The notes below the pieces were generated by a model, which did not search any database, was not told where the DNA came from, and worked only from the letters and a program-made list of their open reading frames with translations. Shown here in pieces: positions 9,842 through 39,268 of a DNA stretch of 64,000 nucleotides (its first letter is position 1; every line of letters begins with the position of its first letter). The DNA is from Escherichia phage vB_EcoM_PhAPEC2: sequence record NC_024794.1. One strand, given 5' to 3'. The position numbers and the translations under genes are program-made.

Positions 9842-9878
9842 ATTATTTTCCTCGGTTATTTTATTATCCAATGAGAGC

Positions 9879-9907
9879 ATTATACTCTGCTCTCAAGAGT
9901 TTGTAAA
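9879..9907 (-). promoter_or_regulatory. T4-type early (sigma70) promoter, TTTACA-N17-TATAAT
   Basis: Minus strand TTTACAAACTCTTGAGAGCAGAGTATAAT; the 48-bp block is duplicated exactly at 38995-39042. Confidence 0.6.
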
Positions 9908-9910
9908 TCG

Positions 9911-10111
9911 TTATCCGAACTTTTTAGCGCCTTTCCAGCCTTCGTACATAACTGCACAAGTCAGTAGTACAGCGTGCTGGCATTCTTTGTATTTGTAAAT
10001 CCAGAACCAGCGTAAGAAGTCTTCGTCCTCAACACCGTTGAGTTTCATGTTCGCGAAGAATTCAGCTCGTTCTTCGCGAAGTTTTTGAGATAACATAGAT
10101 TCAGGATTCAT
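9911..10111 (-). CDS. Hypothetical protein
   Basis: 66-aa ORF, ATG verified at 10111. Confidence 0.45.
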   Translation of the reverse strand: MNPESMLSQKLREERAEFFANMKLNGVEDEDFLRWFWIYKYKECQHAVLLTCAVMYEGWKGAKKFG

Positions 10112-10242
10112 TTTATATTCCAGACCCCATTTTCATCGATGAACTTAATCCAGTCATTTACAGACCATTTAGTTGTATCACCCTTTGGATTAACATTTAA
10201 AGTATATAATCCCTGCTTAAAAAGCATTCGTTTGATATTCAT
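10108..10242 (-). CDS. Hypothetical small protein (44 aa)
   Basis: ATG 10242 with SD GAGGAAATT; ATGA-coupled to downstream ORF. Confidence 0.35.
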   Translation of the reverse strand: MNIKRMLFKQGLYTLNVNPKGDTTKWSVNDWIKFIDENGVWNIK

Positions 10243-10249
10243 AATTTCC

Positions 10250-10543
10250 TCAACTGTAACGATAACATTCGTTAGCTTTACGTTTGGCTTCAGTATGAGA
10301 AGTATTATAATCATACTCTTCTTTACTGTAAACATCCTTTTTCAACTTACGAACTTCTTTGCGGAGTTGTCGATTCATTTCATTCTTGACTTCAGAATCA
10401 ACGCCTTTCGTACGTTTCCATTTATCTGAGCGGAAAATGTTTTCAACCATGTCTTTGTGGCTAACACCGTCAGGAGCTTTACGCTTACCAAAATAGTCGT
10501 AATCACGAACTTTCAAATCTTTACGACGATATGTTTTACCCAT
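10250..10543 (-). CDS. Hypothetical highly basic protein
   Basis: 97 aa from ATG 10543 (MGKTYRRKDLKVRDYDYFGKRK...), K/R-rich. Confidence 0.45.
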   Translation of the reverse strand: MGKTYRRKDLKVRDYDYFGKRKAPDGVSHKDMVENIFRSDKWKRTKGVDSEVKNEMNRQLRKEVRKLKKDVYSKEEYDYNTSHTEAKRKANECYRYS

Positions 10544-10550
10544 AAGTACC

Positions 10551-10799
10551 TCAGAGGTTGATTGATACAACACGTTTGATAAAATTCACTTCACTTACTG
10601 AAAGGTCTTTAAGACCGATTGATTCTAAACGCTGAGTAAGCGTCAACATCGGGATATAATCCCATTGGGTTTTATTTGCTTGATAAGTACGAACGCCATT
10701 AGCAATTTCAACATGCAAATCGGAAATGGTAACGAATACCGGTCGCTCGTCATTAACTTTAAGGGTTAGAACAACTTTCTTTGAATCTAAACTAATCAT
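10551..10799 (-). CDS. Hypothetical protein
   Basis: 82-aa ORF, ATG verified 10799, ATGA-coupled. Confidence 0.5.
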   Translation of the reverse strand: MISLDSKKVVLTLKVNDERPVFVTISDLHVEIANGVRTYQANKTQWDYIPMLTLTQRLESIGLKDLSVSEVNFIKRVVSINL

Positions 10800-10978
10800 G
10801 GCTTAATTTCCTTCGCAATTGAACAGAAGATACCACGGTCACAAAGCATTTCGCCAATTTCTGGATATTTGATTGAACGGTACCAAACATCCAGGCTTGA
10901 AACTCTGGTTATCTGTACTGCATTACCGTTGACAGAATAGTACTGGTCAACCTTAATTTCTTTATCTTCAATTGTCAT
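10796..10978 (-). CDS. Hypothetical protein
   Basis: 60 aa from ATG 10978 (MTIEDKEIKVDQYYSVNG..., SD GAGGAAAA). Confidence 0.45.
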   Translation of the reverse strand: MTIEDKEIKVDQYYSVNGNAVQITRVSSLDVWYRSIKYPEIGEMLCDRGIFCSIAKEIKP

Positions 10979-11143
10979 TTTATTTTCCTCTATAGTAGAT
11001 GGTTTAATCTTAACACATCTATTGAGGATGTAAACTGTTTTATGAAAATATTTTCGATTTGAGAGGGGCACAAGGAGATAGTGAAGTGAAGATTCCAATG
11101 GATTATATTAGAAATGAGATAAAGAAGACCAGGCGGCACCTGG

Positions 11144-11437
11144 TCAATCTTCTATGATATCAGAGTCATATCCTAATGAAATCAAGGACTTTTTAAACTC
11201 TGCAATATTCTTTTGTTTCTTATCATTTAAAAATATGACAGGATAACGAATATTAAGTGAAGTGAATCCTGCACGTTTAGCAAGAGATACGATTAAAGGA
11301 CGGTCATATTCAATCTTACCATTATTAGTGAGGACTTTATAAAATGTATAAGGAGCATTGAGCTCCTTTAAAAGTTTTGTAACAGTATAACATCCTGGAC
11401 AACGTCCAACTTCTTCAGGGATGCCATAGATTTCAAT
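11144..11437 (-). CDS. Glutaredoxin/thioredoxin-like protein (CPGC motif); start codon unresolved
   Basis: Frame encodes ...IEIYGIPEEVGRCPGCYTVTKLLKEL... but has no in-frame ATG after the stop of the upstream ORF; possible ATT start, coupling or frameshift. Confidence 0.45.
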   Translation of the reverse strand: MEIYGIPEEVGRCPGCYTVTKLLKELNAPYTFYKVLTNNGKIEYDRPLIVSLAKRAGFTSLNIRYPVIFLNDKKQKNIAEFKKSLISLGYDSDIIED

Positions 11438-11750
11438 CTTGTTCTTTAAGTTCGAGTTTTGTTCCACGAGAAATAATTCCTTGGTAAGCCCAATAAGGAG
11501 GATTAACAGAATCCTCACCAGAGTTTTCTTCAGGAAAATAAACCTGGATAACGAAGCCGGATTCATCAAAGGTAAAATAAACCGTAGGCAGTTCACCTAA
11601 CAAATCGGCACGAGCGTTGATTTCTTCGAGGTCTTGTTCACGTCCAGCCCAGAAGCTTGGGTTCAGACTACATTCATAGAAATAATAGTCATTACCGAAC
11701 ATATCAAAACCATTCCAACTCTCTACTACATACCGCTCAAAACTAATCAT
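11433..11750 (-). CDS. Hypothetical acidic protein
   Basis: 105-aa ORF, ATG verified at 11750. Confidence 0.5.
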   Translation of the reverse strand: MISFERYVVESWNGFDMFGNDYYFYECSLNPSFWAGREQDLEEINARADLLGELPTVYFTFDESGFVIQVYFPEENSGEDSVNPPYWAYQGIISRGTKLELKEQD

Positions 11751-11752
11751 AA

Positions 11753-11968
11753 TTAAGCCTTTTTATCAAGAACAGAATTCAGTTTATTAGTAATTTTGTC
11801 CAAACGTTCATTGAATTCGCTGGAGGATAAACCCTTTTCTGGAGAAATTAAACTAATCACGAAAAATACACCAGTAAAAGGAATAAGAAAAATAGCTCCA
11901 ACTGCCATAAACAAAAAGAACGTTACAGTTGTAAGAAAATCAGCTAAACCTTTACGAAATTTGTACAT
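11753..11968 (-). CDS. Hypothetical small membrane protein
   Basis: 71 aa with central hydrophobic segment (FFLFMAVGAIFLIPFTGVFFVISLI). Confidence 0.5.
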   Translation of the reverse strand: MYKFRKGLADFLTTVTFFLFMAVGAIFLIPFTGVFFVISLISPEKGLSSSEFNERLDKITNKLNSVLDKKA

Positions 11969-12078
11969 ATTTACCCTTAATTAACTAAGCATTGATAATC
12001 ATTAAACTATATTGCGAATAAAATTCTGGACCAAAACGAAAAATCATATCATTTATAGTATCCATAATGTAATTCAAT

Positions 12079-12549
12079 TTAATCATGTTTCCACACCCCA
12101 TCGGTATTTGACCAAAGTCGCTGATTATCTGATCCTCGCCACAGTTTTTTGGTCGGAAGATTTTTCTCATACTTCCCATCAATAATAACATCAACATATT
12201 TAAGCATTTCTAGTTGTTTAATATCTTCAAACTTATATCCTGTCCACAACCAAATGCTTTTATTGGGATAAAGATTTTTTACTGTTTGAGCAATGCAATG
12301 AATAACATCTCGGTTATCAGGATAGAGAGGGTCACCTCCGGTTATAGTTAATCCTTCTATATAATCATTATTCAAACATTCAATTAATTGTTCTAGTGTT
12401 TCACCAGTGAATGGAGCACCATTTCTAGCATTCCATGTTGATTTATTATAACACCCTTCGCATTTATGCAAACAACCTGTAACGAAAAGAACGACCCTGC
12501 AACCAGGGCCATTCACAAAATCGCAAGGGTAAAATCTATCATAATTCAT
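12079..12549 (-). CDS. nrdG: Anaerobic ribonucleotide reductase activating protein NrdG (radical SAM)
   Basis: 156 aa; CxxxCxxC cluster motif (CLHKCEGC); coupled to nrdD. Confidence 0.9.
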   Translation of the reverse strand: MNYDRFYPCDFVNGPGCRVVLFVTGCLHKCEGCYNKSTWNARNGAPFTGETLEQLIECLNNDYIEGLTITGGDPLYPDNRDVIHCIAQTVKNLYPNKSIWLWTGYKFEDIKQLEMLKYVDVIIDGKYEKNLPTKKLWRGSDNQRLWSNTDGVWKHD

Positions 12550-14363
12550 TGGTGTTTAACCCTATGCATGATTTCTTTATTTTTACCGAGATTAAATCCG
12601 CGTTCGTTCGGATTTCCAAGATAACCGCATGTTCTTCTTATGGTGTTCATCTTTTTAGGATCAGTTTCTCCACAAACTGAACAAACAAATCCGTTTTCAG
12701 TAGGAGTCATTTCATGGGTACTTCCACATGTAAAACATTTATCTACTGGCATATTAACACCAAAATAATCTAAATGTTGTGCAGCATAATCCCACACGGC
12801 CTCAAGACCTTTTAAATTGTTTTTCATGTCAGGTAATTCAACATAAGAAATGTGACCACCTGTCGCAATGAAATGATATGGCGCTTCACGAGAAATCTTT
12901 TCAAACGGAGTAATATTTTCTTCTACTGAAACATGGAAACTGTTAGTGTACCAGCCTTTATCGGTAACATCTTTTACGCTTCCATATTTTTCTGTGTCGA
13001 GTTTACAGAAACGATAACACAAGTTTTCAGCAGGAGTAGAATATAAACTAAAAGCAAATCCAGTTCTTTCGGTCCACTGTTTAAGATGAGCATTCATTTT
13101 AGTTAAAATTTCTTGTCCAATATCACGGCCAACAAGAATATTCAATTCGTGAATACCAATGTATCCTAGGGACACTGAACTTCTACCGTTTTTAAATAAC
13201 TCAATTATATCGTCATCAGGTTTAAGACGAACCCCGAATGCACCTTCTTGGTAAAGAATAGGAGCAACAGTAGCTTTAACACCCTTTAAAGAACTAATTC
13301 TACACATCAAGGCTTCAAAACACAGATCCATTCGTTCATTAAATAGCTCAACAAATTTCTGTTCATTGAACTGTGTTCCAATATAAGAATCTAATGCGAT
13401 ACGAGGAAGATTCAGTGTTACAACGCCAAGATTATTACGACCGTCAAGAATTTCATTTCCAGTTGAATCTTTCCATACGCTCAAGAAACTACGACAACCC
13501 ATTGGAGAAACAGGAACAGATGAACCAGTGATAGCTTTATTATTCTTAACCGAAATAATGTCAGGATACATTCTTTTGCTTGCACATTCTAATGCAAGTT
13601 GTTTAATATCATAGTTCGGATCATCTTTATAAAGATTAACACCTTCTTCAACAAACATAACAAGTTTAGGAAAAATAGGAGTTATTCCATCACGACCAAG
13701 ACCTTTAATGCGGTTTTTAAGAATTGCCTTCTGAATCATTCGTTCAGTCCAGTCAGTTCCTGTACCAAATGTAATTGTCACAAAAGGCGTTTGTCCGTTT
13801 GAACTAAAGAGAGTATTTACTTCATACTCATAAGCTTGAAATGCGTCATAGACATCTTTTTCTGTTTTGGATTGAGCATAATTCAACGCATCAGCGATTT
13901 GCCATTTTTCTGCATCCTCAATATGTTTTGCATAGGTGCGTTTAACATAAGGAGAAAGAACTTTATCGACATTCGCAAATGTAGTTCCGCCATACTGGTG
14001 AGAAGCAACTTGTGCAGTAATTTGTGCCATAATTGCAGTAGCAACACCAATCGATTTAGGCGTTTCAATTTGAGCATTGCCTAATTTAAATCCATTCTCA
14101 AGCATCCCCTTTAAATCGACTAAACAACAATTGGTAAACGGAAGAGCAGGAGAATAATCAATATCATGCATGTGAATGATTCCGCTTTCATGCGCATGCA
14201 TAATAAAAGACGGGACCATATTTTTGGCAATGTGCTTAGACACAATACCAGCCATAAGGTCCCGTTGAGTTGGAAAAACACGAGAATCTTTATTAGCATT
14301 CTCGTTCAAAAGATCTTTATTAGTTTTATAAATTAATCCTTCAATTTCTTTTTCAATTTTCAT
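12546..14363 (-). CDS. nrdD: Anaerobic ribonucleoside-triphosphate reductase NrdD, uninterrupted
   Basis: 605 aa; C-terminal glycyl-radical motif RRTCGYLG and Zn-ribbon CFTCG...CSVCG; contiguous ORF, no intron. Confidence 0.93.
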   Translation of the reverse strand: MKIEKEIEGLIYKTNKDLLNENANKDSRVFPTQRDLMAGIVSKHIAKNMVPSFIMHAHESGIIHMHDIDYSPALPFTNCCLVDLKGMLENGFKLGNAQIETPKSIGVATAIMAQITAQVASHQYGGTTFANVDKVLSPYVKRTYAKHIEDAEKWQIADALNYAQSKTEKDVYDAFQAYEYEVNTLFSSNGQTPFVTITFGTGTDWTERMIQKAILKNRIKGLGRDGITPIFPKLVMFVEEGVNLYKDDPNYDIKQLALECASKRMYPDIISVKNNKAITGSSVPVSPMGCRSFLSVWKDSTGNEILDGRNNLGVVTLNLPRIALDSYIGTQFNEQKFVELFNERMDLCFEALMCRISSLKGVKATVAPILYQEGAFGVRLKPDDDIIELFKNGRSSVSLGYIGIHELNILVGRDIGQEILTKMNAHLKQWTERTGFAFSLYSTPAENLCYRFCKLDTEKYGSVKDVTDKGWYTNSFHVSVEENITPFEKISREAPYHFIATGGHISYVELPDMKNNLKGLEAVWDYAAQHLDYFGVNMPVDKCFTCGSTHEMTPTENGFVCSVCGETDPKKMNTIRRTCGYLGNPNERGFNLGKNKEIMHRVKHQ

Positions 14364-14833
14364 TTTAAACTCTTTCTAAGCTGCTTTTTGAATGAAGCTA
14401 TTAATTGTGTTTTAGTGTCAGATTCATTATATTTAAATCCTCTTTGAAGCATCTCAGTCATCATTTCCTCTTTACCTAGTCTTGAGAACTCTTTAGTTTT
14501 GTCTGGAACAAAATTAGGATGGATATTATTATCAGAATAATCTTGTTTCAAATAAGCAAGAAGAGCTTCAAGCCATTCTAGGTAGTCGACATCACGGCCT
14601 TTAAGACCAGAACGGTTGAACTTATGCTTCATTTGGCCTTCTGCTGCGTTGCACAGATTACAGAGTAATCCACGAACTCTACCTGCTTTTGGCCCGTTTA
14701 ATTCGTGGTCGTGGTCAAGATGGTTACCTTGAACATCAGGGTCTAATTCACGGTGGCAAATAGGACACTTACCGTTCTGTGCATCATAAAATTTTTGTTT
14801 TTCTTCTTTATATTTTGAGCCTGATAATAACAT
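14360..14833 (-). CDS. 49: Endonuclease VII (Holliday junction resolvase) gp49
   Basis: 157 aa; ...GKCPICHRELDPDVQGNHLDHDHELNGPKAGRVRGLLCNLCNAAEG... as in T4 endo VII. Confidence 0.92.
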   Translation of the reverse strand: MLLSGSKYKEEKQKFYDAQNGKCPICHRELDPDVQGNHLDHDHELNGPKAGRVRGLLCNLCNAAEGQMKHKFNRSGLKGRDVDYLEWLEALLAYLKQDYSDNNIHPNFVPDKTKEFSRLGKEEMMTEMLQRGFKYNESDTKTQLIASFKKQLRKSLK

Positions 14834-14838
14834 GATAA

Positions 14839-14871
14839 ACCCTTACCTTAAATAGATAAGGGTATTTATTA
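14839..14871 (-). promoter_or_regulatory. Gene 49 regulatory hairpin sequestering the SD, with late-promoter-like AATAAATA just upstream
   Basis: Minus ACCCTTA-(11 nt)-TAAGGGT stem covering the AAGGG SD; AATAAATA (7/8 to TATAAATA) at 14864-14871; T4 gene 49 is known to use this early-hairpin/late-promoter arrangement. Confidence 0.4.
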
Positions 14872-15282
14872 ACTTAAACGTCTTTCTAAATATTCAATGT
14901 ATTCTGCGGCTGCTTGCATCAGGTTACCTTCATAGCCGTCGTTATTTTCTTGTCCGGCTAATTTAGCTAATGCATAAGAAATTCGTTCACCTTCGAATTC
15001 ACCAAGTCCACCATCACAAACTACTTGGTCAATTTCTTCGAGTTCATCTATTGAATGGGATTCCCAGAAGCACCAAAGAGAAGTATCACGGTCATAGATG
15101 CAAAGTTTCTCACCTGTGTTCAACATCACTTCGATAATGCCATGGCCGCCATAACCATCTTCAGTAGTAGTACCAATTACCTTGATGATCGTATCTTTCT
15201 TTAATTCAGGAAACTTGAATTGTAGTTCTTCATCTTCTTTAACAATCTTGAACCATTTACCGCGAGTTTCAGAAATATTCAT
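14869..15282 (-). CDS. Hypothetical protein (T4 pin/49.x position)
   Basis: 138 aa from ATG 15282 (MNISETRGKWFKIVKEDEELQ...). Confidence 0.45.
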   Translation of the reverse strand: MNISETRGKWFKIVKEDEELQFKFPELKKDTIIKVIGTTTEDGYGGHGIIEVMLNTGEKLCIYDRDTSLWCFWESHSIDELEEIDQVVCDGGLGEFEGERISYALAKLAGQENNDGYEGNLMQAAAEYIEYLERRLS

Positions 15283-15283
15283 A

Positions 15284-15454
15284 TCAATATTCTCTATAAA
15301 AGTTACGATGAGAACGTTTAGCTTTGCGAAGCTGTCGTTTAGTAGGACGAACTGTAAATGGTTGTCCGGAGAAAAAATTCGGATCGGTTTTAATAAGCAA
15401 ATACCAATCATGTTTGCCGTTTTTTAATAAACGGTACAATAATTTAACTTGCAT
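15284..15454 (-). CDS. Hypothetical small basic protein
   Basis: 56 aa from ATG 15454 (MQVKLLYRLLKNGKHDWYLL...). Confidence 0.35.
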   Translation of the reverse strand: MQVKLLYRLLKNGKHDWYLLIKTDPNFFSGQPFTVRPTKRQLRKAKRSHRNFYREY

Positions 15455-15503
15455 AATAATCTCTTCCCATTTCCATATCAATTAATTCATTTATTGAAGG
15501 TTC

Positions 15504-15533
15504 ATCATAACATGGTTCTTCGTCGTTGTAAAC
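15504..15533 (-). promoter_or_regulatory. Candidate early promoter TTTACA-N17-TATGAT
   Basis: Minus GTTTACAACGACGAAGAACCATGTTATGAT. Confidence 0.35.
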
Positions 15534-15582
15534 TGTTTCGACGTCTGGCTCGACAGTCTCCCATCGAGCAGAATACCACGGT

Positions 15583-15918
15583 TTAACCCCGGAGTTTATT
15601 GAGCTCTTCATAATCAATCCAGGATTCTAGCCCTGACGGCAGGTCACATTCAATGTTCCACAGAAGCTCTTCAATGGCTTGCAGGCGATTATATTCTTCA
15701 ACAGTAATAGTAACCATTGTTTCAGGCTTTTTAACCATCATGTCATTCATCAGAATGTACAGGTCTTCACAAACAGCCGGGTCGTCCCATGTCCATATTT
15801 CAGCATCTCGAACCAATGAAGTCGGAATCGAATTTAAAACTTCAAGCTTAGTAGGAGCGTCAGGACCGAGAAGAGTTGCTACAAATTTATATGCTTTGGT
15901 GAAATCAATATTGTTCAT
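15583..15918 (-). CDS. Hypothetical acidic protein
   Basis: 111-aa ORF, ATG verified at 15918. Confidence 0.5.
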   Translation of the reverse strand: MNNIDFTKAYKFVATLLGPDAPTKLEVLNSIPTSLVRDAEIWTWDDPAVCEDLYILMNDMMVKKPETMVTITVEEYNRLQAIEELLWNIECDLPSGLESWIDYEELNKLRG

Positions 15919-16178
15919 TTAAAATATTCTCGCAGTTGGTCAAATCCACCAATGTGACTTCCGTCAGGAGCAAACACTTGAGGCATAGTCAATCCGACTT
16001 GTGATTCACGTCCAAGCTTAACCAGAAGCTCAGCAATTTTCTCATCATCAAACACACCTTTTTCTGGCATAACATTAATGAATTCAAATGGCTGTTTCTT
16101 AACAGTCAGCAATCGTTTTGCATTATCACAATAAATGCATTTATGAATAGTAGAGTCATACCCGTACACTTTAAACAT
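15915..16178 (-). CDS. nrdC: Thioredoxin/glutaredoxin NrdC
   Basis: 87 aa; MFKVYGYDSTIHKCIYCDNAKRLL... with CxYC redox motif, near-identical to T4 NrdC as recalled. Confidence 0.9.
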   Translation of the reverse strand: MFKVYGYDSTIHKCIYCDNAKRLLTVKKQPFEFINVMPEKGVFDDEKIAELLVKLGRESQVGLTMPQVFAPDGSHIGGFDQLREYFK

Positions 16179-16585
16179 TATTTTTTCCTTTCATCGATTA
16201 AATACGCAACACCAAATACAATACATGTAATAAAACCTGTGATACCGATAGAGAACATCAACACTGTACCAAAGAACCAAATCAGATTATCTTTAGTAGT
16301 TTGTTTGATATCCATCTCACGAATTTCTATAGCTATCGTATCACCTTTATTCAGAAGCGTATAAAACGACGGTGATACATGCCTGTCAAAAACTCGACCT
16401 TGTTCATCTTTATAAACTGCAATAAATTCCAATTTAGAATATTTTCCTGTAGATTGGCCTGAGATTAATTCTACTACCTCCACAGGAATTACTTTAGTTT
16501 CCATGTAAGTATTCTGGCTGTTCCAAATGAATGGAATAATGGCAAAAACTAAAGCTGCGATAAAACAACGAAGGCTATATCTCAT
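16178..16585 (-). CDS. Hypothetical membrane protein
   Basis: 135 aa with N- and C-terminal hydrophobic segments. Confidence 0.5.
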   Translation of the reverse strand: MRYSLRCFIAALVFAIIPFIWNSQNTYMETKVIPVEVVELISGQSTGKYSKLEFIAVYKDEQGRVFDRHVSPSFYTLLNKGDTIAIEIREMDIKQTTKDNLIWFFGTVLMFSIGITGFITCIVFGVAYLIDERKK

Positions 16586-17897: not shown

Positions 17898-17902
17898 CCG
17901 TT

Positions 17903-28083: not shown

Positions 28084-28542
28084 CTAGATTTTAATCACTG
28101 CTTTAGAAGCTTTTCCTGGTAGTCGTTTATTGTTAATAATAGCCATTCTGCATTGAAGAGTCTTCATTTTGAATGCTGGATTTTCGCGACAAACTGTAAG
28201 TCCTAACCAAAGATTTCCATCAGTTATTTCTAAACGGCCTGGGCGATATTCGACACCTTCGACAAAATCTTCATCAACATCTGGACGTGCCGGCATTGAT
28301 AAAAATTCTGTAACTTCTTTAACATGATTTTTTACTTTACGAAATAATTCAAAAACGTAATTCTCATCTATTTCTCTTTGGATGGCACGATCTAAGAGAT
28401 GTTGAGAATACTTGATATGAAAGCCTGGTAGTCCAAGAGACTTTGCAGCATCTTTTATACCGGCATTGATTTGACGAAACTCCGTTTCAAAGATTCGACG
28501 GAGTTTATTGCGGCGGATAAAAACGTCTGAATTGATAGTCAT
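28084..28542 (-). CDS. regB: RegB site-specific endoribonuclease
   Basis: 152 aa; MTINSDVFIRRNKLRR...YSQHLLDRAIQREIDE...CRMAIINNKRLPGKASKAVIK matches T4 RegB as recalled. Confidence 0.9.
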   Translation of the reverse strand: MTINSDVFIRRNKLRRIFETEFRQINAGIKDAAKSLGLPGFHIKYSQHLLDRAIQREIDENYVFELFRKVKNHVKEVTEFLSMPARPDVDEDFVEGVEYRPGRLEITDGNLWLGLTVCRENPAFKMKTLQCRMAIINNKRLPGKASKAVIKI

Positions 28543-28561
28543 TTTGATTTCTCCTCTAGTT

Positions 28562-28599
28562 GACAGGTCTATAGTAACACAACTAGAGGAGAAGTAAAC
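28562..28599 (-). promoter_or_regulatory. PeSL-like early promoter cassette with 12-bp dyad (CTCCTCTAGTTG/CAACTAGAGGAG) covering the regB SD
   Basis: Minus GTTTACTTCTCCTCTAGTTGTGTTACTATAGACCTGTCAACTAGAGGAG. Confidence 0.45.
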
Positions 28600-28603
28600 T
28601 ACT

Positions 28604-31279: not shown

Positions 31280-31309
31280 ATTATACCATATTAATACTTA
31301 AGCGTAAAC
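31280..31309 (-). promoter_or_regulatory. Early promoter TTTACG-N17-TATAAT upstream of ipIII
   Basis: Minus GTTTACGCTTAAGTATTAATATGGTATAAT. Confidence 0.45.
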
Positions 31310-31312
31310 AAT

Positions 31313-31429: not shown

Positions 31430-31435
31430 TTTTCC

Positions 31436-31849
31436 TTAGTAAATTGATTTACCATAGTATTTGTACCAAGTCGGACGTTGAGCAATTTTTTCATCTAAGC
31501 GTGCTTGACTTATCGCAATGGACGCTTCGGACGGGACATAATTATTACGAAATTCGGCAGGGATGTCGGAAATATCCTGGACTGTCGTGTCCTTGATTTT
31601 GAAACCACGTTTCAAACATTCAGCGATTAGCTCGATTTGTCGTAAACGTAAAAATTCGAGTTTGTCGTAAAAGAATGTTACGTGACCTGTGCCTAAGATA
31701 AATGTTGGAGAGATTTTAAAATCCTTTACACGTTTACCATTTTGAACATGTTTACGGACTGCACCGAATACACGAGGTAATTCGCGATACTCAGCCATAA
31801 GATGTTGGTCGGCCAGTTCAGAAACAAGTGTTAAATTGATACGAGTCAT
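31436..31849 (-). CDS. denV: Endonuclease V (pyrimidine-dimer DNA glycosylase)
   Basis: 137 aa from ATG 31849; [35 protein letters not shown]... matches T4 DenV as recalled. Confidence 0.92.
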
Positions 31850-31864
31850 AATTTCCTCCAAGTA

Positions 31865-31906
31865 GTTGATGAATGTATAGTATCAAAACTCTTGGAGGAA
31901 GTAAAC
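31865..31906 (-). promoter_or_regulatory. PeSL-like early promoter cassette upstream of denV
   Basis: Minus GTTTACTTCCTCCAAGAGTTTTGATACTATACATTCATCAACTACTTGGAGGA; dyad CTCCAAG/CTTGGAG covers the SD. Confidence 0.45.
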
Positions 31907-31907
31907 A

Positions 31908-32189: not shown

Positions 32190-32674
32190 ATATACGCTTT
32201 CCAAGTTCCTGTTTTAAATGTTGAGATTACGCGTTTCGCGCGATTAGGTGTCTGACGATACCATTTAGATTTGGCTAGATTTACTGCCGCTTCGTCCCAA
32301 CGTTTCTGTTGAAGCATACGAAGAGAATTAGTAAAACCAGCGACGCCTGCTACACCCATTTGGAAGACCATATTGATCAATGCACATCGACGAACCGCAT
32401 CTAAAGAATCATATACCGGTTTAAGTTTAGCATTACCTAAGATTCCGCGAACGGCTTTATCAACGTCTTCATTAAATAGCTTTTCAGCCTCATCAAGGGT
32501 AATTGTACCGTTGCATTTACGACCGATCATTCTGTCAAGTTCAGCTTTAGCTACGGCTAAAGACGGGTTCTTTGTTACTAAATGGCCTATGCCAATCGTC
32601 CAAAAGCCTTCAGTGTCTTTGTATAAAGTCAGTCTAAGACCTTCGTCGTTACGAAGCATTTCAAATATATTCAT
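32186..32674 (-). CDS. e: Lysozyme (endolysin) e
   Basis: 162 aa from ATG 32674; [32 protein letters not shown]... with catalytic E11/D20/T26 context. Confidence 0.93.
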
Positions 32675-32678
32675 AATA

Positions 32679-32707
32679 CCTCCCACGTTTATAGGAGGTA
32701 TTTATTA
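32679..32707 (-). promoter_or_regulatory. Gene e SD-sequestering hairpin (CCUCC/GGAGG) with late-promoter-like AATAAATA upstream
   Basis: Minus TAATAAATACCTCCTATAAACGTGGGAGGTATTATG; matches the known T4 gene e early-hairpin/late-promoter arrangement. Confidence 0.45.
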
Positions 32708-32708
32708 C

Positions 32709-33167
32709 TTATAGGAGGGTAGTGAGCACCTTATATAATGATTTGCCCATTACATATTCCCATTGAGAAGGTTTAATTAAAGCGAATGCATCAAATTCAG
32801 GAATCTGACGTCCATCTGGGAATGTATGATAGGAATTACAAATACTGTTTCTGAATTGCTCGTGCTCTACAGGGATGGTATATAGGAACAGATGAATATT
32901 CTTATTGTCTGAGTAATGATGTTCGCCTAGGTCTTTCAGGAAGGCAGGGTCATATTGTGTAAACCCAGTTTCTTCTTCGCATTCACGAATAGCGGCTTCG
33001 ATAGGAGATTCGCCAGGTTCGACACGGCCTTTAGGAATATCCCACCGATGAGCTAATGCACCTTTAGGACGAGAACCAGTTACACGGCCCATGAATAACT
33101 CTTTATCTTTTGTCATGAAGATAATACCGGCTGATAGTTCTTTCACTTTATTTTTCTTACTCATCAT
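32709..33167 (-). CDS. nudE: Nudix hydrolase NudE
   Basis: 152 aa; Nudix box GRVEPGESPIEAAIRECEEETG. Confidence 0.85.
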   Translation of the reverse strand: MMSKKNKVKELSAGIIFMTKDKELFMGRVTGSRPKGALAHRWDIPKGRVEPGESPIEAAIRECEEETGFTQYDPAFLKDLGEHHYSDNKNIHLFLYTIPVEHEQFRNSICNSYHTFPDGRQIPEFDAFALIKPSQWEYVMGKSLYKVLTTLL

Positions 33168-33393
33168 CTCGGTCCCATGATTTGGCCATTAATTCGGACA
33201 TAAATTCTTCAATGCGCGTTTCTTTAGACGGACTTTCACTATTAGAGACCGCAAGTTTGTAATCTGCAATAGGACGGAACAAATCAAGGTCCATATTAAG
33301 ATCGTCTTTGATTTTTTCTTCTGACACATCTTTATCGTATGTGTACAGATAACTATCACATGATTCTGATTTAATGTAAATTGCTATACTCAT
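33157..33393 (-). CDS. Hypothetical acidic protein
   Basis: 78 aa from ATG 33393 (MSIAIYIKS...), ATGA-coupled. Confidence 0.4.
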   Translation of the reverse strand: MSIAIYIKSESCDSYLYTYDKDVSEEKIKDDLNMDLDLFRPIADYKLAVSNSESPSKETRIEEFMSELMAKSWDRDDE

Positions 33394-33881
33394 CTCAAAT
33401 TCCTGCATTCGGTAATAAAACGTTCAACTTCATTATTCTTGGCTTTTATCTTGTCTTTATGTTCTTGTAAACTACTTTTAATAAGATTAATAATGATGGC
33501 AGCGGTACCACCGCCAATGATGCCACCAACAACACTTATGATACTAGATGCTAATAAGATAGCAATAATATCAACAAAACCGAAAGAACTCACCTTAGTA
33601 CTAAAAAACCACACTGACGGTACAAATATAATCCATCCTGTTATCCATTGGCACTTATTGAAAAACTTTTCAAGCTCAGCTTGAGTTGTTCGTATTACTT
33701 CATCGATAGGTTGATATCCGTTAATGTATCTGTTCACAATAATACCTGCTGGCTGGTCGATTTTAAATTCTTGGCAAATATGTTTCACTAAGTAGGATGG
33801 ACATCCTGTCCAATCTACTGAATAGTATGAAATACCTTCATTGCCATCGTCTATATTAGACCAATATGTTTTGTTAATCAT
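33390..33881 (-). CDS. Membrane protein, FIKECR-tail family member
   Basis: 163 aa; hydrophobic core, Gly-rich segment, C-terminal ...ERFITECRNLR. Confidence 0.5.
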   Translation of the reverse strand: MINKTYWSNIDDGNEGISYYSVDWTGCPSYLVKHICQEFKIDQPAGIIVNRYINGYQPIDEVIRTTQAELEKFFNKCQWITGWIIFVPSVWFFSTKVSSFGFVDIIAILLASSIISVVGGIIGGGTAAIIINLIKSSLQEHKDKIKAKNNEVERFITECRNLR

Positions 33882-34567
33882 TACCAGCCTTCCATAGGGA
33901 ATTCCAGATAAACTTGAGCATTGACACGAATTTCATTGGTAATCTTTTTAACTCGATCTGTATTACGAGATACACGTCCGAACCAACGCCATCCGTTACT
34001 AATTGCACGAGAACCAGTGTGCCATGTTTGCCAATCAAACTGAAGAAGAGTACGGTCTGGAGCTTCCCATTTCTCTAGTTCGCCTTTTTCGATTTTTTCG
34101 AGGACTTCTTTGTGCCACTGACGATAGATAAGTTCGCCATCAGGAATCTGACTGAACTCTGCAGTTCCTGTTGCAAAATGAGTAGGACACACACCAGCGT
34201 TAACAAGACCAAGAATATGTTCAGAATGGTAACGAGGGTTGTCATAGTCAGGTTGTCCTGCAGTAATAAAGTGTTGACCAACTGGAATATCAGGGCGTGG
34301 TACGTCATCATGGTGATAGCCTGGGATTGCAGGATACCAACCAGGCATCAGCATGTGGACTCGTGAATCAAATACAACCTGGTCGGTGTTCCAATCATCA
34401 GGCAAGTTCATAATGAAAGAGCGAGTAATAGGACCGCCGTTATTATAAGCAAATTCTAAACTACAGTTGAAGAACATAGGCTCGTTCTTGATTTTATCAT
34501 TAGAAATGCTACCGGCAAAACCACCTACTGCACGAGCTTGACTATTAAACACTTTAGAACTATTCAT
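33881..34567 (-). CDS. Hypothetical protein (228 aa), His/Asp-rich putative enzyme
   Basis: ORF with SD GAGGAAA; segments YHHDDVP and HSEH. Confidence 0.55.
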   Translation of the reverse strand: MNSSKVFNSQARAVGGFAGSISNDKIKNEPMFFNCSLEFAYNNGGPITRSFIMNLPDDWNTDQVVFDSRVHMLMPGWYPAIPGYHHDDVPRPDIPVGQHFITAGQPDYDNPRYHSEHILGLVNAGVCPTHFATGTAEFSQIPDGELIYRQWHKEVLEKIEKGELEKWEAPDRTLLQFDWQTWHTGSRAISNGWRWFGRVSRNTDRVKKITNEIRVNAQVYLEFPMEGW

Positions 34568-34568
34568 A

Positions 34569-34874
34569 TTATTTTCCTCGACATTCTTTAATGAAATTTT
34601 CTAGATTGGTAGATTCAATAGCTTTTTTACGAGCTTCTGCGTGTTCTTCTTCAGACAATTTACGTTTATAATTGACCCAGACATTATGGTCTAAACCAGT
34701 TGTGGCATATAATATCAAAGCTCCGACGAATAATAAAAACGGTGATAAAAATATACAACCAGGAACACCATCCATACTGTAAGCCTTTTGTAATACGGCA
34801 ACAGAAAGAGCTGCGTAAAAAAGCGATGCAAATATTGTAAAAAGACCGATTCGGTTGGTTTCGCCTAATTTCAT
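34569..34874 (-). CDS. Membrane protein, FIKECR-tail family member
   Basis: 101 aa; two hydrophobic segments; C-terminal ...LENFIKECRGK. Confidence 0.55.
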   Translation of the reverse strand: MKLGETNRIGLFTIFASLFYAALSVAVLQKAYSMDGVPGCIFLSPFLLFVGALILYATTGLDHNVWVNYKRKLSEEEHAEARKKAIESTNLENFIKECRGK

Positions 34875-34893
34875 AATATTCTCCTCATGTTTT

Positions 34894-34932
34894 AATAGGA
34901 CTACTATAACATAGTCCTATAATTGTGTAAAC
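34894..34932 (-). promoter_or_regulatory. PeSL-like early promoter cassette (TTTACA-N17-TATAGT with 8-bp dyad ATAGGACT/AGTCCTAT)
   Basis: Minus GTTTACACAATTATAGGACTATGTTATAGTAGTCCTATTAAAAC. Confidence 0.5.
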
Positions 34933-34944
34933 AGTTTTGTGAAG

Positions 34945-35901
34945 TTATTTGAAAGGTTTTACCATATGGAAATTTTGTTTGAAACGTTTTACGTAATCGT
35001 CGTGTCCTAAGCTTTGGTACATACTTACAACTTTGCTGTAGTTTTCCCAGGCGTATTCACGGAACCAACCGGAGGTGATGCTTGTGCAGACTTTTTCTAA
35101 TGCCATCATGAAACTGGCTTCAGGGTTAATTTTAAAGTCATTAGGAATCTGAGAACGTTCTAACGCTAGTACACATGATTCTTCGTATACACCGGCCAAT
35201 TTGACCATTTCTGGTAACGATTCGAACTTCTCGCGTGAGGTCATGACTTCAGAACCGTCTTTCATGTAAAACGTATAAGCCGGACGGTCTGTTAGTGCAA
35301 TGGCTTCATGAATAGTATCATGGTCATATGTATAGATGTCATCTTTAAAGAACGCACTTTTAGAAGTGTCAAGAACTGGGTGAGCATAGTTCAAAGTTTC
35401 TTTCTGGCGTTTCAGCATAATTTCAGTAAGTTCATCGTTCAGTGTAACACCTTTACCACGAAGATACTGGATATGGTTCATAGTCTTTAAAAAGAATGGA
35501 TTATTTTTCTTGAAACGATGAGACATTTTAATTGCAAGACATATCTCAGGAGTTGCCCAGTAAAACCCGGTCAAACGATCTTTAGTCAAATTTTTCTTGG
35601 CGTATTTTAAAAGGTCATAAGAAGACGTGAAATCTTCAGGAGTGAGTTCGCCGATTAATTCACGGACATTAGTGATTGCCGGAACAATATACGCTTCAAA
35701 ATGAGTTTCGCGTCCGTTATGGAAGCATTTGAAAACTTGGACATCAGGGTTATCTTGGTGAACATATACACCCATCATTTGATTTTTGAATGCATTCCAA
35801 GAACATTGGTCTGCAATAAAGTCCCAGTCACTATTTTTGATAGCGTTAGAATCAATAAGACCATGATAGTGAAGTGCACGAGAACCAATAACTAACATCA
35901 T
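34945..35901 (-). CDS. Hypothetical protein (318 aa)
   Basis: Long ORF; no motif recognised by eye. Confidence 0.55.
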   Translation of the reverse strand: MMLVIGSRALHYHGLIDSNAIKNSDWDFIADQCSWNAFKNQMMGVYVHQDNPDVQVFKCFHNGRETHFEAYIVPAITNVRELIGELTPEDFTSSYDLLKYAKKNLTKDRLTGFYWATPEICLAIKMSHRFKKNNPFFLKTMNHIQYLRGKGVTLNDELTEIMLKRQKETLNYAHPVLDTSKSAFFKDDIYTYDHDTIHEAIALTDRPAYTFYMKDGSEVMTSREKFESLPEMVKLAGVYEESCVLALERSQIPNDFKINPEASFMMALEKVCTSITSGWFREYAWENYSKVVSMYQSLGHDDYVKRFKQNFHMVKPFK

Positions 35902-35929
35902 AATATTTTCCTCGGATTAATTCATTAAC

Positions 35930-36169
35930 TTAAATTTCACGACATGCGATATTATATTCATCCCAGAGGTCATCATGTGAAGCCTCTACCAATGGAACGA
36001 TTGTACCGTTTATGTCTTCATTATAAGGGCAAATTGTACAGTGCGCGTCTTCGAATCGGATGCCTTTGTGTTCAGATTTTTTATAACGCATATCGAATAT
36101 CTTTGCAAACTTTTCACGAGTAATGGTTTTAGCAACCACTTTGGTTCCAATACTTTCGTAATAAATCAT
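35930..36169 (-). CDS. Hypothetical small Cys-containing protein
   Basis: 79-aa ORF, ATG verified at 36169. Confidence 0.5.
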   Translation of the reverse strand: MIYYESIGTKVVAKTITREKFAKIFDMRYKKSEHKGIRFEDAHCTICPYNEDINGTIVPLVEASHDDLWDEYNIACREI

Positions 36170-36188
36170 TGTGGACTCCGTTTAATTT

Positions 36189-36227
36189 GATAGGACTACT
36201 ATAACATAGCCCTATCTTGTTGTAAAC
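36189..36227 (-). promoter_or_regulatory. PeSL-like early promoter cassette (TTTACA-N17-TATAGT)
   Basis: Minus GTTTACAACAAGATAGGGCTATGTTATAGTAGTCCTATCAAATTAAAC. Confidence 0.5.
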
Positions 36228-36231
36228 TGTT

Positions 36232-36429
36232 TTAGCAAGAATAACTAGATGATACCCAGCCTTGAACAGTGATACTATTGTGGGATAATGAGATCGCGTC
36301 CTGGAGATTCAGACCTGCGTTATCTTCAATCCATAATGTAACTTCTTCGCGTTCTTCTGTTGCAATTTGGAACAGGTTTTCCAGGGCAGCTACTGCCGTA
36401 CGTACAGCACAATCTAATTCACGAGACAT
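36232..36429 (-). CDS. Small protein, WVSSSxxC-tail family member
   Basis: 65 aa ending ...QGWVSSSYSC. Confidence 0.5.
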   Translation of the reverse strand: MSRELDCAVRTAVAALENLFQIATEEREEVTLWIEDNAGLNLQDAISLSHNSITVQGWVSSSYSC

Positions 36430-36438
36430 ATGATTTCC

Positions 36439-36711
36439 TTAACAAGTGTGAGAAGATGCAACCCAACCACCAGTTTCGAGGCTCAGGTTGTAGTCGTATT
36501 GGTAAACGTCGGCCCATTCAGCATAGCCGTTTTTTGTACAACGTTCAAGATCGGCTTTAAGATGTCCTGGTGAATGATAGGTTCCACCCATACCATAAGC
36601 TGGGTACAAGTCGAATGTTGTGTTTTGTTTATCAGCAATTTCTTTGGCAGCCTCAATAGCTGCATAGATTTTTGCTACGGCTTCAGCCAGTTCGGTTTGT
36701 TCTTTAGACAT
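36439..36711 (-). CDS. Small protein, WVSSSxxC-tail family member
   Basis: 90 aa ending ...GGWVASSHTC; shares GGTYHSPG-like motif with next paralog. Confidence 0.5.
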   Translation of the reverse strand: MSKEQTELAEAVAKIYAAIEAAKEIADKQNTTFDLYPAYGMGGTYHSPGHLKADLERCTKNGYAEWADVYQYDYNLSLETGGWVASSHTC

Positions 36712-36720
36712 AATGATTCC

Positions 36721-37026
36721 TTAGCACAACGCAGAAGACGAAACCCAAGCACCTTCAGTAATAACGTAACCATTACCTTCACGCTTAACATCGCCACCAT
36801 TATTTTCAATTTCATCTTTCATCCACTGGGATACGATTTCACCCTTAGGATAATAAGTACGACCGCTACCATAATCACCTACAGAAAATGATACGGCATA
36901 TTGGTCTGCGATCTTTGTTGCTTCTTCTTCGATACGTTCAGCTTGATTCAGAAGTTTATAAATTGCATCTGAAGCGGATTTGGCATCATTAAACTCTGGT
37001 ACTTTAATTTCAATAATCTTACTCAT
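36721..37026 (-). CDS. Small protein, WVSSSxxC-tail family member
   Basis: 101 aa ending ...GAWVSSSALC. Confidence 0.5.
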   Translation of the reverse strand: MSKIIEIKVPEFNDAKSASDAIYKLLNQAERIEEEATKIADQYAVSFSVGDYGSGRTYYPKGEIVSQWMKDEIENNGGDVKREGNGYVITEGAWVSSSALC

Positions 37027-37382
37027 TTTCTACATTCCTTAATAAAGTTTTCAATTGTTTCATTTTCACGTCTAGCTAGGAGTTCATTATAACTAATCAT
37101 TTGAGAAGCGTAAACCTTTTTATTTTTCTTGTTATGGTTTATAAAATCGTAGTAAAAATAGACTACAGTACAAAATGATGCGATGGATGCAAAGGCTTGG
37201 GTGTATCTTAGGTCCTGCCATTGGTCTGTGAATCCACCGGTATTCCCTATAAATCCTAACACAACTCCGTCAATAAGAAATCCAACTAATCCAAAGGCAA
37301 ATCCCATGCCAATACTCATAATAAAAATTAGAATGTTCTCACCAAGAGACGGCCATACGGTTAAGAGTTGAGGCTTTTGCAT
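37023..37382 (-). CDS. Membrane protein, FIKECR-tail family member
   Basis: 119 aa; two TM-like segments; C-terminal ...ENFIKECRK. Confidence 0.5.
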   Translation of the reverse strand: MQKPQLLTVWPSLGENILIFIMSIGMGFAFGLVGFLIDGVVLGFIGNTGGFTDQWQDLRYTQAFASIASFCTVVYFYYDFINHNKKNKKVYASQMISYNELLARRENETIENFIKECRK

Positions 37383-37756
37383 CTTATTTCCTTAACGAAT
37401 TCCATAGCTTCTTCATATTCATATTTTTTAACAGCTTCATCATACTGAGCTTGGGCTTTTGCGCACTGAACTTTCCACTCGCGAACTCGAGCTCTGTGAT
37501 GACGGCCTTGGTGCCAATATCCTGCCCAATTAATAGGCATTAATAAAAACGGTACAATAAGTGGTGCGACGAACATTAATGAAAACGCTGCATCAGACGA
37601 TATAACTTTATTGGAATCTAAAATAGCTCCTATAATCATAAAGATTAAAAATGCTAAAGCTAAAATAGGGCCAAATAGTACTTCGTTTGGGATTAATTTA
37701 CGTTTGTATTCGTATGCCCATGGCTTAATTGGCATGTACAGGGTTGGCTTTGACAT
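37361..37756 (-). CDS. Membrane protein, FIKECR-tail family (divergent; start uncertain)
   Basis: ORF with hydrophobic segments; C-terminal ...EFVKEIRCKSLNS; alternative ATGs at 37786/37756/37735. Confidence 0.45.
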   Translation of the reverse strand: MSKPTLYMPIKPWAYEYKRKLIPNEVLFGPILALAFLIFMIIGAILDSNKVISSDAAFSLMFVAPLIVPFLLMPINWAGYWHQGRHHRARVREWKVQCAKAQAQYDEAVKKYEYEEAMEFVKEIRCKSLNS

Positions 37757-38327
37757 ATTCTCTACATTCCATAATAAATTGCTCAAGGATTAAATTGTTA
37801 GTGAAATTAGGACTAACAACCATAGTTTCATAAAGCGCATCAATAGCACTTAAAGCATCAACTCTTTTAAGCAAAGGCTTGCCTTCATACATAGTTTCAG
37901 AATCGACGATTAACGTAAAGTAATATTTTTTATTATCGACTAGAACTTCTGTGTCGATATAAAACATATTAGACCTCAGAAGCTTATCTCTAAAACCATA
38001 ATAATCTTCTGAACGTTCGCTGATATATTCCAATTCAGTGTTTAAACAACAAACAGACCACGTAGGAGCAACGAAATCAGTGAATCTAATATCATGGTCT
38101 GCAACTAGTTTAGCAATAGCTCCGATATCATGAATCATAATACCTGGGGCTAATAAAGATTTTCTGCTATGGCTAGCAGTTTTCTCAGTGGTCTCATAAG
38201 AAGCTGACCAGTACCATTTACGTCCGGTTGCAACATATCGTAATGAATCAACTAAAGACGTAGGTGGATTTACCTTATCTCGGAACTCTTCGAACATTGA
38301 GTCAATATCATTATTTTGGTTTCGCAT
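37725..38327 (-). CDS. Hypothetical protein (200 aa) with FIMECR-containing C-terminus
   Basis: ATG 38327 with SD AAAGGAG directly after the terminator at 38346-38368. Confidence 0.5.
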   Translation of the reverse strand: MRNQNNDIDSMFEEFRDKVNPPTSLVDSLRYVATGRKWYWSASYETTEKTASHSRKSLLAPGIMIHDIGAIAKLVADHDIRFTDFVAPTWSVCCLNTELEYISERSEDYYGFRDKLLRSNMFYIDTEVLVDNKKYYFTLIVDSETMYEGKPLLKRVDALSAIDALYETMVVSPNFTNNLILEQFIMECREYVKANPVHAN

Positions 38328-38345
38328 GTTAACTCCTTTATTATC

Positions 38346-38368
38346 CAAAAGGAGGACCGGAGTCCTCC
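38346..38368 (-). terminator. Rho-independent terminator (GGAGGAC-N4-GTCCTCC + U-run)
   Basis: Minus GGAGGACUCCGGUCCUCC followed by UUUUGG. Confidence 0.55.
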
Positions 38369-38376
38369 GCATTATT

Positions 38377-38970
38377 TTATTTCAAAGAGTTAATATATTC
38401 TTGTACATCAGCAGAAGTGGTTTCGACACCGGCTGGAGTGCCATTGAACGTTTCAACACGAGTCAGAGTGTCTTCGATATCAACCTTAGTCAGTGCAGCG
38501 ATTTCAATTACATCATCGGCTGTAGAGATACCAAGGGCATTGGCTGCTCGAGTTTCACGAATGTATTCGAGTTTAATTGCCAGGTTCTGACGAGCATCGT
38601 CAAGTTCAACCACCTTACGAGCAATTTCAATTCGCATAGCGGCATACCCGTCGGCTTTTGTATTAAGTTGTTCGGCAGTTCGACGATACAGAAGACCAAG
38701 TTTAGCATGCATAGTAACATCTTGTCCTTCAGCCAGGAGCTTGCGAATTTCACGTTCCTTAGAAGCGGCTTGCTTGTTCTTTTCATTAACAAGTTCGCGA
38801 ATACGTTTTTCTTCATTAATAGATTTAACAGAAGCCGTTTTTAGTTCTTTGATTTGGGTAATCAACTTATCTGCAGCTGCGTTATACTGTTCTTCGACAG
38901 TCAGATTTTTAGCCATAGCAGTACCCAGTTTAGTGCGGATGAATTCAACAAGTTTCTTCAGTGTGTTCAT
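38377..38970 (-). CDS. Hypothetical coiled-coil protein (197 aa)
   Basis: ATG 38970 ([10 protein letters not shown]...); heptad-like charged helical sequence; flanked by strong early promoter and terminator. Confidence 0.55.
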
Positions 38971-39011
38971 ATTATTACCTTTCAATTGGTGGTTTATTAT
39001 CCAATGAGAGC

Positions 39012-39040
39012 ATTATACTCTGCTCTCAAGAGTTTGTAAA
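39012..39040 (-). promoter_or_regulatory. T4-type early promoter TTTACA-N17-TATAAT (exact duplicate of the one at 9879-9907)
   Basis: Minus TTTACAAACTCTTGAGAGCAGAGTATAAT within a 48-bp block identical to 9863-9910. Confidence 0.6.
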
Positions 39041-39268
39041 TTATTTTTTAATCAAATTGACATAAAACTTGGCGTCTTCCGGGTGCATGCCTTCACAGTA
39101 TTCTTCAACCATGAACTTCTTAACAGCTTCATAAGGACCACTCAGATTAAGCTCAGTTGTCCAGAACTTGGAATCTTGGGCTGAATCGATACGAACTTCA
39201 GGGTGACGGTTGCGAATAACTTCTTCGGTATATTCATAATCAACGACATCAATACTAACTTTAGCCAT
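39041..39268 (-). CDS. Hypothetical protein (75 aa)
   Basis: ORF, start MAKVSID at 39268. Confidence 0.5.
   Translation of the reverse strand: MAKVSIDVVDYEYTEEVIRNRHPEVRIDSAQDSKFWTTELNLSGPYEAVKKFMVEEYCEGMHPEDAKFYVNLIKK

Follow-up and report, generated by a model that had tools for sequence, protein, structure and literature searches.

Identical copies of an early promoter cassette 29 kb apart in a Mosigvirus genome: probable recombination between older stem-loop paralogues

Two early genes of Escherichia phage vB_EcoM_PhAPEC2 that lie about 29 kb apart appear to be served by the same promoter, letter for letter, which raises the question of how such identity arose and what it can do to the genome. 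The stretch analyzed here (the window) comprises 64,000 nucleotides of the record NC_024794.1 and comes from a Mosigvirus, a T4-like coliphage of the Tevenvirinae that is 96–98% identical to the phages mogra, F27, AV116, and JS09. A first-pass annotation had described an exact 48-bp duplication of a strong early promoter at 9863–9910 and 38995–39042 and attributed it to recent duplication or recombination. Our analysis indicates that the block is probably a T4-type early promoter cassette of the promoter-early stem-loop (PeSL) kind, whose copies were made identical by ectopic recombination or gene conversion between older paralogues.

The exact duplication at two distant loci was confirmed. 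The annotated 48-mer had exactly two matches in the window, 9861–9908 and 38994–39041, both on the plus strand, and a recount gave 0 mismatches between the copies. The original coordinates were off by 2 and 1 nt, and exact identity reached one base beyond the 48-mer, giving a true length of 49 bp (9860–9908 and 38993–39041). No third 48-mer match was found in the window at up to three mismatches, and dinucleotide shuffles yielded none (0/100). The 49-bp copies are direct repeats about 29 kb apart, and their ends are sharp, with unrelated flanking sequence on either side of both copies. No exact repeat in the window is longer; the runner-up is a 30-bp terminator, and the longest repeats of the window and of mogra are all promoter or terminator cassettes. 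The two copies are laid out as follows.

9860–9908, minus strand: copy 1 of the cassette (P55.x), from the exact repeat, the promoter scan (11/12), and the RNA fold
9907–9902 and 9884–9879, minus strand: −35 (TTTACA) and −10 (TATAAT) of copy 1, with stem arms at 9895–9888 and 9879–9872
Near 9872, minus strand: predicted start of copy 1
38993–39041, minus strand: copy 2 of the cassette (Pe.6), from the exact repeat, the promoter scan (11/12), and the RNA fold
39040–39035 and 39017–39012, minus strand: −35 and −10 of copy 2, with stem arms at 39028–39021 and 39012–39005
Near 39005, minus strand: predicted start of copy 2

The minus-strand sequence of the cassette is ATTTACA AACTCTTGAGAGCAGAG TATAAT GCTCTCATTGGATAATAAA. 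The promoter scan matched TTTACA-17-TATAAT at 11 of 12 consensus positions in both copies, so that the minus-strand TTTACA-N17-TATAAT reading given earlier was correct. The T4 early promoter consensus consists of GTTTAC at −36 to −31, a TGn motif, a TATAAT-like −10, and an A-rich UP region (Hinton 2010, PMC2988021), and 57 early promoters have been predicted in RB69 (Nolan et al. 2006, PMC1524935). The cassette carries the T4-type hexamers, with 17 bp between a TATAAT-like −10 and GTTTAC(A/T) at −36 to −31, except for an A in place of G at −36. It resembles the T4 promoters further in its perfect TATAAT, in the A-tract just upstream of copy 2 (TTGATTAAAAAATA), and in an orientation and position that suit the early-region genes, which from about 1 to 45 kb are all on the minus strand. 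Upstream of copy 1 the sequence is AAAAAGTTCGGATAACG, in which the A-tract is displaced. Each copy spans the space from an upstream stop codon to the Shine-Dalgarno (SD) sequence and ATG of the next gene; the repeat begins 0–2 nt past the stop, and the SD and ATG lie within 18–25 nt downstream. The identification of a promoter-like cassette of T4 early type, directly upstream of two genes, was upheld, and the annotation of phage ATK47 describes the copy 2 site as "similar to consensus host promoter". Transcription by host sigma70 RNA polymerase would begin about 7 nt past TATAAT, and copy 1 would serve the 55.x-like gene and copy 2 the e.6-like gene.

The second element of the cassette is a hairpin around the −10. 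An 8-bp inverted repeat, TGAGAGCA/TGCTCTCA, encloses the −10 hexamer between its arms. When the 49-mer was folded as RNA, an 8-bp stem (UGAGAGCA/UGCUCUCA) was obtained with an 8-nt loop carrying most of the −10, and the fold energy was −13.8 kcal/mol (z −3.6), a value that none of 200 shuffles reached. Among 17 distinct family members, 96.3% of the stem cells were paired, versus 32–57% in slid controls in which the stem partner was shifted by 1–3 columns. In these 17 members, compensatory double changes affected 4/8 stem pairs (A-U/G-C, G-C/C-G, C-G/A-U, and G-C/A-U), a suggestive count, and the one-sided stem changes amounted to 11 wobble pairs (6 U.G and 5 G.U) that pair solely on the promoter-sense strand. 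That the wobbles pair on just this strand favors a structure at the RNA level or in the sense strand over a protein operator. The conservation of pairing suggests that the hairpin is under selection. The tendency extends to the 44 predicted early promoters of mogra, whose spacers are complementary to the bases following the −10 beyond all 500 permutations, with a mean longest stem of 6.45 versus 5.25 ± 0.20 when permuted. Several promoters of the window have 11–14-bp stems with the −10 in the loop, and about 20 hairpin promoters occur between its 9-kb and 45-kb positions.

The hairpin lacks the signature of a Rho-independent terminator. No U-tract follows it, the next sequence being UUGGAUAAUAAA, and a terminator scan found no minus-strand terminator-like site at either copy; this reading was consequently rejected. 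Rfam at its gathering threshold returned nothing at either locus, and its only matches in the whole window were three transfer RNAs (42043–42273). Because the predicted start falls inside the 3′ arm and the 5′ arm precedes it, the full hairpin would be confined to RNA that has read through from promoters further upstream. In such read-through RNA it would most likely act as an attenuator, a processing site, or a stability element insulating neighboring transcription units.

A comparable logic is known from T4, in which hairpins sequester the ribosome-binding sites of genes e, soc, 49, and I-TevI and the internal promoter is late or middle. As in those cases, the promoter of the cassette lies within the hairpin, so that its own transcript would escape a structure formed in read-through RNA. 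In contrast to them, the 3′ arm of the 49-bp cassette covers the start-site region and not the SD. Two other early promoters of the window, at 28535–28600 and 31845–31907 (both minus strand), have a −35/−10 spacer that pairs with the SD of the downstream gene, in 14-bp stems of −21.6 and −20.0 kcal/mol (z −3.9 and −4.9). At these two sites the SD would be hidden in read-through transcripts and exposed in transcripts from the internal promoter. The spacer:SD pairing at 28.6 and 31.9 kb resembles the arrangement of T4 gene e and soc, but with an early promoter.

Cassettes of this composition have been described as PeSLs, intergenic units of an early promoter and a stem-loop, in RB49 and phi1 (Arbiol et al. 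2010, PMC2839356). There, the stem-loop is mostly located in the interval from the −35 to the −10 or overlaps the −10, and it contains G-T pairs; hyperplastic regions have repeated copies of the cassettes, which stand at indel or replacement junctions of close relatives and are proposed, and in part shown, to recombine into mini-circles (PMC2839356). Comeau et al. (2014, PMC4122927) later added KVP40/nt-1 and T4/PST to the class, the latter with TTTACW-N17-TAYWAT as its consensus. The 49-bp cassette fits the T4/PST consensus, has a stable stem-loop enclosing the −10 with G.U pairs on the sense strand, and belongs to a family whose copies are repeated in variable early regions and located at indel or replacement junctions. 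It differs in that the published pairs are neighbors 0.4–4 kb apart that form mini-circles, whereas the present pair is 29 kb apart with essential genes between, and in that, compared with the G4...C4 stems of RB49, its stem contains more A/T and lacks a U-tract. A literature search found no PeSL description for Mosigvirus. The cassette is thus a member of an already published class, real but ordinary.

Family members were sought in the complete mogra genome, and relatives were collected by short-query blastn. A scan of IMG/VR with an 18-nt core returned 25 stretches, mostly with one copy per genome, so that it informed on allele diversity and not on pairs within a genome; eight hits were chance matches in an unrelated coding sequence. 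In mogra, four family members were found, two at 100% (the two loci of the window), one at 93% (upstream of ndd), and one at 89% (pseT region); a Mosigvirus genome has four paralogous copies. Dhakavirus carries family members at the 55.x locus and in the pseT region or after the spanin genes. T6 and the Yersinia phage fPS-90 (Tequatrovirus) have a 40/49 homologue upstream of motB, annotated in fPS-90 as a "predicted early promoter". Some other T4-like contigs retain a degraded family remnant, AGAGTATTATACTCCTACGGATTTTAAA, at the e.6 locus, and some have a GGATAATAAAAT tail at the 55.x locus, there after a terminator. The same promoter allele was also seen at non-orthologous loci in different genera (Tequatrovirus motB and Dhakavirus 55.x); this variant, TTTACAAACTCTTGGGACCAGAGTATAATGGTCCT, lies upstream of motB in T6 (L066) and fPS-90 (L067), at about 501–547, and upstream of the 55.x gene in Dhakavirus (L041–L043).

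Several further observations concern the surroundings of these cassettes. In the Dhakavirus contigs L008–L026, one upstream gene and the family promoter lead into any of three distinct first genes (MSLRDNSF..., MKILWYVENANNI..., and MKELLENYIK...). The divergence of these first genes starts at or just ahead of the start codon, which points to gene replacement or deletion at the promoter. The second-longest exact repeat of mogra (L004/L005), 47 bp at 65613 and 102452, is another promoter cassette; it runs through the SD and first codons (…GAGGAGTAAACAAAATGACTA) and so covers the starts of two different genes. Terminator cassettes are repeated like promoters: the exact 30-bp repeat 25372–25401/41336–41365 is a terminator hairpin, whose minus-strand sequence is GCCCCTTCCGAAAGGTTGGGGC with a T-run behind it, and a third copy at 40790–40816 shares an exact 27-bp core. 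The tail motif TGGATAATAAA occurs exactly at 9860–9870 and 38993–39003 (the repeat tails) and at 38337–38347 (after the e.6 terminator and before the next SD), and it is seen again in other T4-like contigs, in the 5′ region of 55.x. Its 3 exact and 11 one-mismatch matches compare with 4.3 ± 2.4 expected, and 1/100 shuffles was as high; the enrichment is marginal and too weak for TGGATAATAAA to be accepted as a motif.

Evidence on the origin of the identity came from the alleles at the two loci, which were surveyed in 160 Mosigvirus records. The copy 2 context (111 bp) was at least 80% covered in 133/160 records and at least 99% identical in 103/160. The copy 1 context of the window was complete in 15/160, 14 of them at 100%, and many further records matched perfectly from the gene to the −35 of copy 1 and diverged beyond. 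Within single genomes, the agreement between copy 1 and copy 2 was as follows.

Window: 49/49
mogra: 49/49
AV116: 49/49
F27: 47/49
a20: 44/49

The 49/49 state is therefore not private to the window, having been verified in mogra and AV116, and the exact copy 1 context recurs in 14 records. At the 55.x locus, the orthologues of close Mosigviruses differ from the window allele at 2–6/49 positions, so the identity of the two copies exceeds what promoter function demands, as the first-pass annotation had supposed. The alternative alleles include GAGAGA...TCTCTC in a20 and AlbertHofmann, which is a compensatory stem change, GGGAGC...GCTCTC in L032, and GAGAGC...GCCCTC in E. coli O157 typing phage 13 (tp13). 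Paralogues of one genus resemble each other more than 55.x orthologues of different genera do, as P55.x and PpseT of Dhakavirus agree at 45/49 positions and the orthologues at 39/49.

The sequence upstream of copy 1 is equally variable. Most Mosigviruses carry a 295-bp promoter and open reading frame (ORF) cassette between the 66-aa upstream gene and copy 1, with the junction exactly at the −35 (window about 9905). Carriers of this insertion include a20, AlbertHofmann, tp13, and IMG/VR contigs; it lies at 1129–1436 in L033 and is also present in the relatives L060, L061, and L062. The insert brings a hairpin promoter of its own (GATAGGAAG/CTTCCTATC) together with a roughly 80-aa ORF. In phi25-307, a different 240-nt ORF is joined at the same −35 point, and in all three distinct upstream contexts meet the −35 of copy 1. 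At copy 2, an alternative upstream gene was found in L024/L059. A derivation of the window copy 1 by simple deletion between the promoters flanking the 295-bp cassette was considered and rejected, as the −35 side does not come from the upstream promoter of that cassette. Promoters are frequent but not sole indel junctions: among the 26 rows listed for the window versus a20/tp13, about 5 break within about 15 nt of a predicted promoter on a strict promoter list.

The variability of the alleles, the likeness of paralogues within a genus, and the old family homes at both loci point to repeated exchange among older paralogues. Paralogous promoters that already existed at both loci most plausibly reached 49/49 identity through ectopic homologous recombination or gene conversion; the donor was most likely the stable e.6 copy, and the recipient the variable 55.x copy. 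Of the "recent duplication or recombination" proposed at first, recombination thus stands as the best explanation, and a new duplication does not, because both loci have long held family members.

Purifying selection alone, with both copies ancient, all positions constrained, and no exchange between the loci, would account for a core (CTCTTG.GA.CAGAGTATAATG.TC) kept across three genera and for an e.6 copy nearly invariant in 103/160 records. We consider it unlikely, since the 55.x copy varies at 2–6/49 positions (in the −35, loop, and stem) among phages with 95–99% identical flanks, the identity stops abruptly at both ends, and paralogues share lineage-specific states (A vs. G after the 3′ arm in Mosigvirus; GGGA.C/ACGGATTATAA in Dhakavirus). 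The abrupt ends, the unrelated flanks, and the identical copies would suit a recent duplicative transposition that copied the promoter de novo to a promoterless site. This is very unlikely, because both loci hold family members elsewhere (the Dhakavirus 55.x promoter, the remnant AGAGTATTATACTCCTACGGATTTTAAA at e.6, and the tail GGATAATAAAAT at 55.x), and beside either copy there is no target-site duplication, transposase gene, or homing endonuclease gene. Quite improbable, too, is a self-homogenizing "selfish" module whose −10 hairpin would be extruded or cleaved by a phage nuclease (endonuclease VII or gp46/47) to start gene conversion. If it were true, one promoter allele would have spread among distant loci, even across genera, by dedicated conversion and not by passive recombination, which would account for the GGGACC/GGTCCT variant upstream of both T6 motB and Dhakavirus 55.x.

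Two further explanations concern the nature of the block itself. Repressor operators are classically inverted repeats that overlap the −10, and the palindrome could accordingly bind a dimeric DNA-binding regulator that shuts the promoters off, the repeat reflecting co-regulation of the two genes. This is highly improbable given that the arms vary with pairing retained (GAGAGC/GCTCTC, GGGAGC/GCTCCC, GGGACC/GGTCCT, and GAGAGA/TCTCTC), that the 11 wobbles are A.C mismatches on the opposite strand, and that other early promoters have unrelated arm sequences at the same position; changing arms, wobbles, and unrelated arms elsewhere indicate a structure and not a recognition sequence. Assemblers can be misled by short repeats, and a repeat collapsed or copied during sequencing or assembly might look like this one, but nothing specific speaks for such an artefact, and its probability is close to nil. 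Sequencing reads are far longer than 49 bp, the flanks of each copy are unique and syntenic, the same pair occupies the same loci in the independently sequenced mogra and AV116 genomes, and each copy recurs widely with its flanks (copy 1 context in 14 records, copy 2 context in 133).

The reading of the block as a PeSL-type promoter cassette homogenized by recombination has to be set against several points. The TGn extended −10 is missing at both copies in the promoter scan, with GAG preceding TATAAT, and TGT stands ahead of the −10 in many other promoters of the window; in this, in the A for G at −36, and in the weak upstream A-tract and poor UP region of copy 1, the cassette departs from the T4 early promoters. 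Promoter activity, start site, and strength are predictions from the sequence, and the word "strong" in the first description is accordingly a supposition, the TGn typical of T4 early promoters being absent. Nor does the cassette have, in canonical form, the "terminator" that belongs to the PeSL definition. The covariation was counted in related sequences with few independent events, so that the counts are suggestive and the shuffle control gives no probability. As to the exchange, we infer the direction from e.6 to 55.x from allele stability alone, and exchange among co-infecting phages with different 55.x alleles could produce the same pattern without intragenomic conversion.

The genes around the two copies, taken from the ORF list, are given below.

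9509–9841, minus strand: gene behind copy 1, a 110-aa 55.x-region ORF (ATG 9841–9839, SD GAGG 9853–9850)
9911–10111, minus strand: gene upstream of copy 1, 66 aa, ending ...YEGWKGAKKFG, with its stop 2 nt ahead of the repeat
38377–38970, minus strand: gene behind copy 2, a 197-aa e.6-like ORF (ATG 38970–38968), also supported by orthologues
39041–39268, minus strand: gene upstream of copy 2, 75 aa, frd.3-like; the last base of its TAA stop is the first base of copy 2

The 110-aa ORF has orthologues in Mosigvirus, Dhakavirus, and other T4-like contigs. The e.6-like ORF is annotated in ATK47 as "similar to T4 AAD42574" and lies there beside e.5/e.4/e.3. Near copy 1, a perfect TTTACA-17-TATAAT occurs at 10304–10332 (minus strand) within the coding ORF 10250–10573; this site, which is kept in L033, could be either a promoter internal to the gene or a coincidental match. 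Beyond copy 2, three adjoining tRNA genes lie at 42043–42273 (minus strand), where relatives show two (Arg and Met), and in AV116 a homing endonuclease gene lies between these two.

The first-pass annotation had also expected the repeat to be a substrate for deletion or inversion of the 29-kb interval. Recombination between the copies cannot produce an inversion, as both have the same orientation. The interval contains about 70 ORFs in all, including endonuclease VII (gp49), lysozyme e, nrdD/G, tk, regB, denV, and internal proteins. Genes 49 and e are essential in T4, and a 29-kb deletion would therefore be inviable. The reciprocal product, a 29-kb duplication, is larger than the roughly 3.3 kb that headful packaging leaves as a margin. 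With the deletion inviable and the duplication above that margin, only non-crossover exchange would be viable for the 49-bp pair. The general idea of a promoter repeat as a deletion substrate held, however, for another pair.

34886–34933, minus strand: TAGGACT-hairpin-family early promoter, downstream deletion partner
43730–43777, minus strand: TAGGACT-family early promoter, upstream deletion partner

Typing phage 13 (L061, KP869111; 26969–27001) is without the 34.9–43.7 kb segment of the window, that is, 8.8 kb including copy 2 and the tRNA genes. Its junction connects the sequence upstream of the 43.7-kb promoter with the sequence downstream of the 34.9-kb promoter, and the crossover falls inside the shared TAGGACT...AGTCCTAT promoter. 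Judged from the sequences at this junction, the event reads as a natural promoter-to-promoter deletion, or the reciprocal insertion. Such exchanges have precedents in T4: according to Singer et al. (1982), as cited in PMC2839356, homology of less than about 50 bp is enough for recombination, and deletions and duplications need only 6–10 bp of microhomology, with headful packaging bounding the viable size changes (Srikant et al. 2022, PMC9391042). The 8.8-kb deletion of typing phage 13 is of the same kind. The T4 events differ in having been laboratory-selected at arbitrary microhomologies, whereas the Mosigvirus substrates are promoter cassettes.

These results provide a Mosigvirus example for the PeSL view of T4-type genome plasticity, in which promoters with covarying hairpins are portable junctions for gene shuffling, and they indicate that paralogous promoter copies can be homogenized across 29 kb. 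Exact promoter repeats are normal in these genomes and are no sign of misassembly. The role of the −10 hairpin in read-through RNA is a question already raised by the PeSL papers. In practical terms, the promoter of the 55.x region is a recombination junction, and indels should be expected there when Mosigvirus therapeutic phages are compared or engineered.

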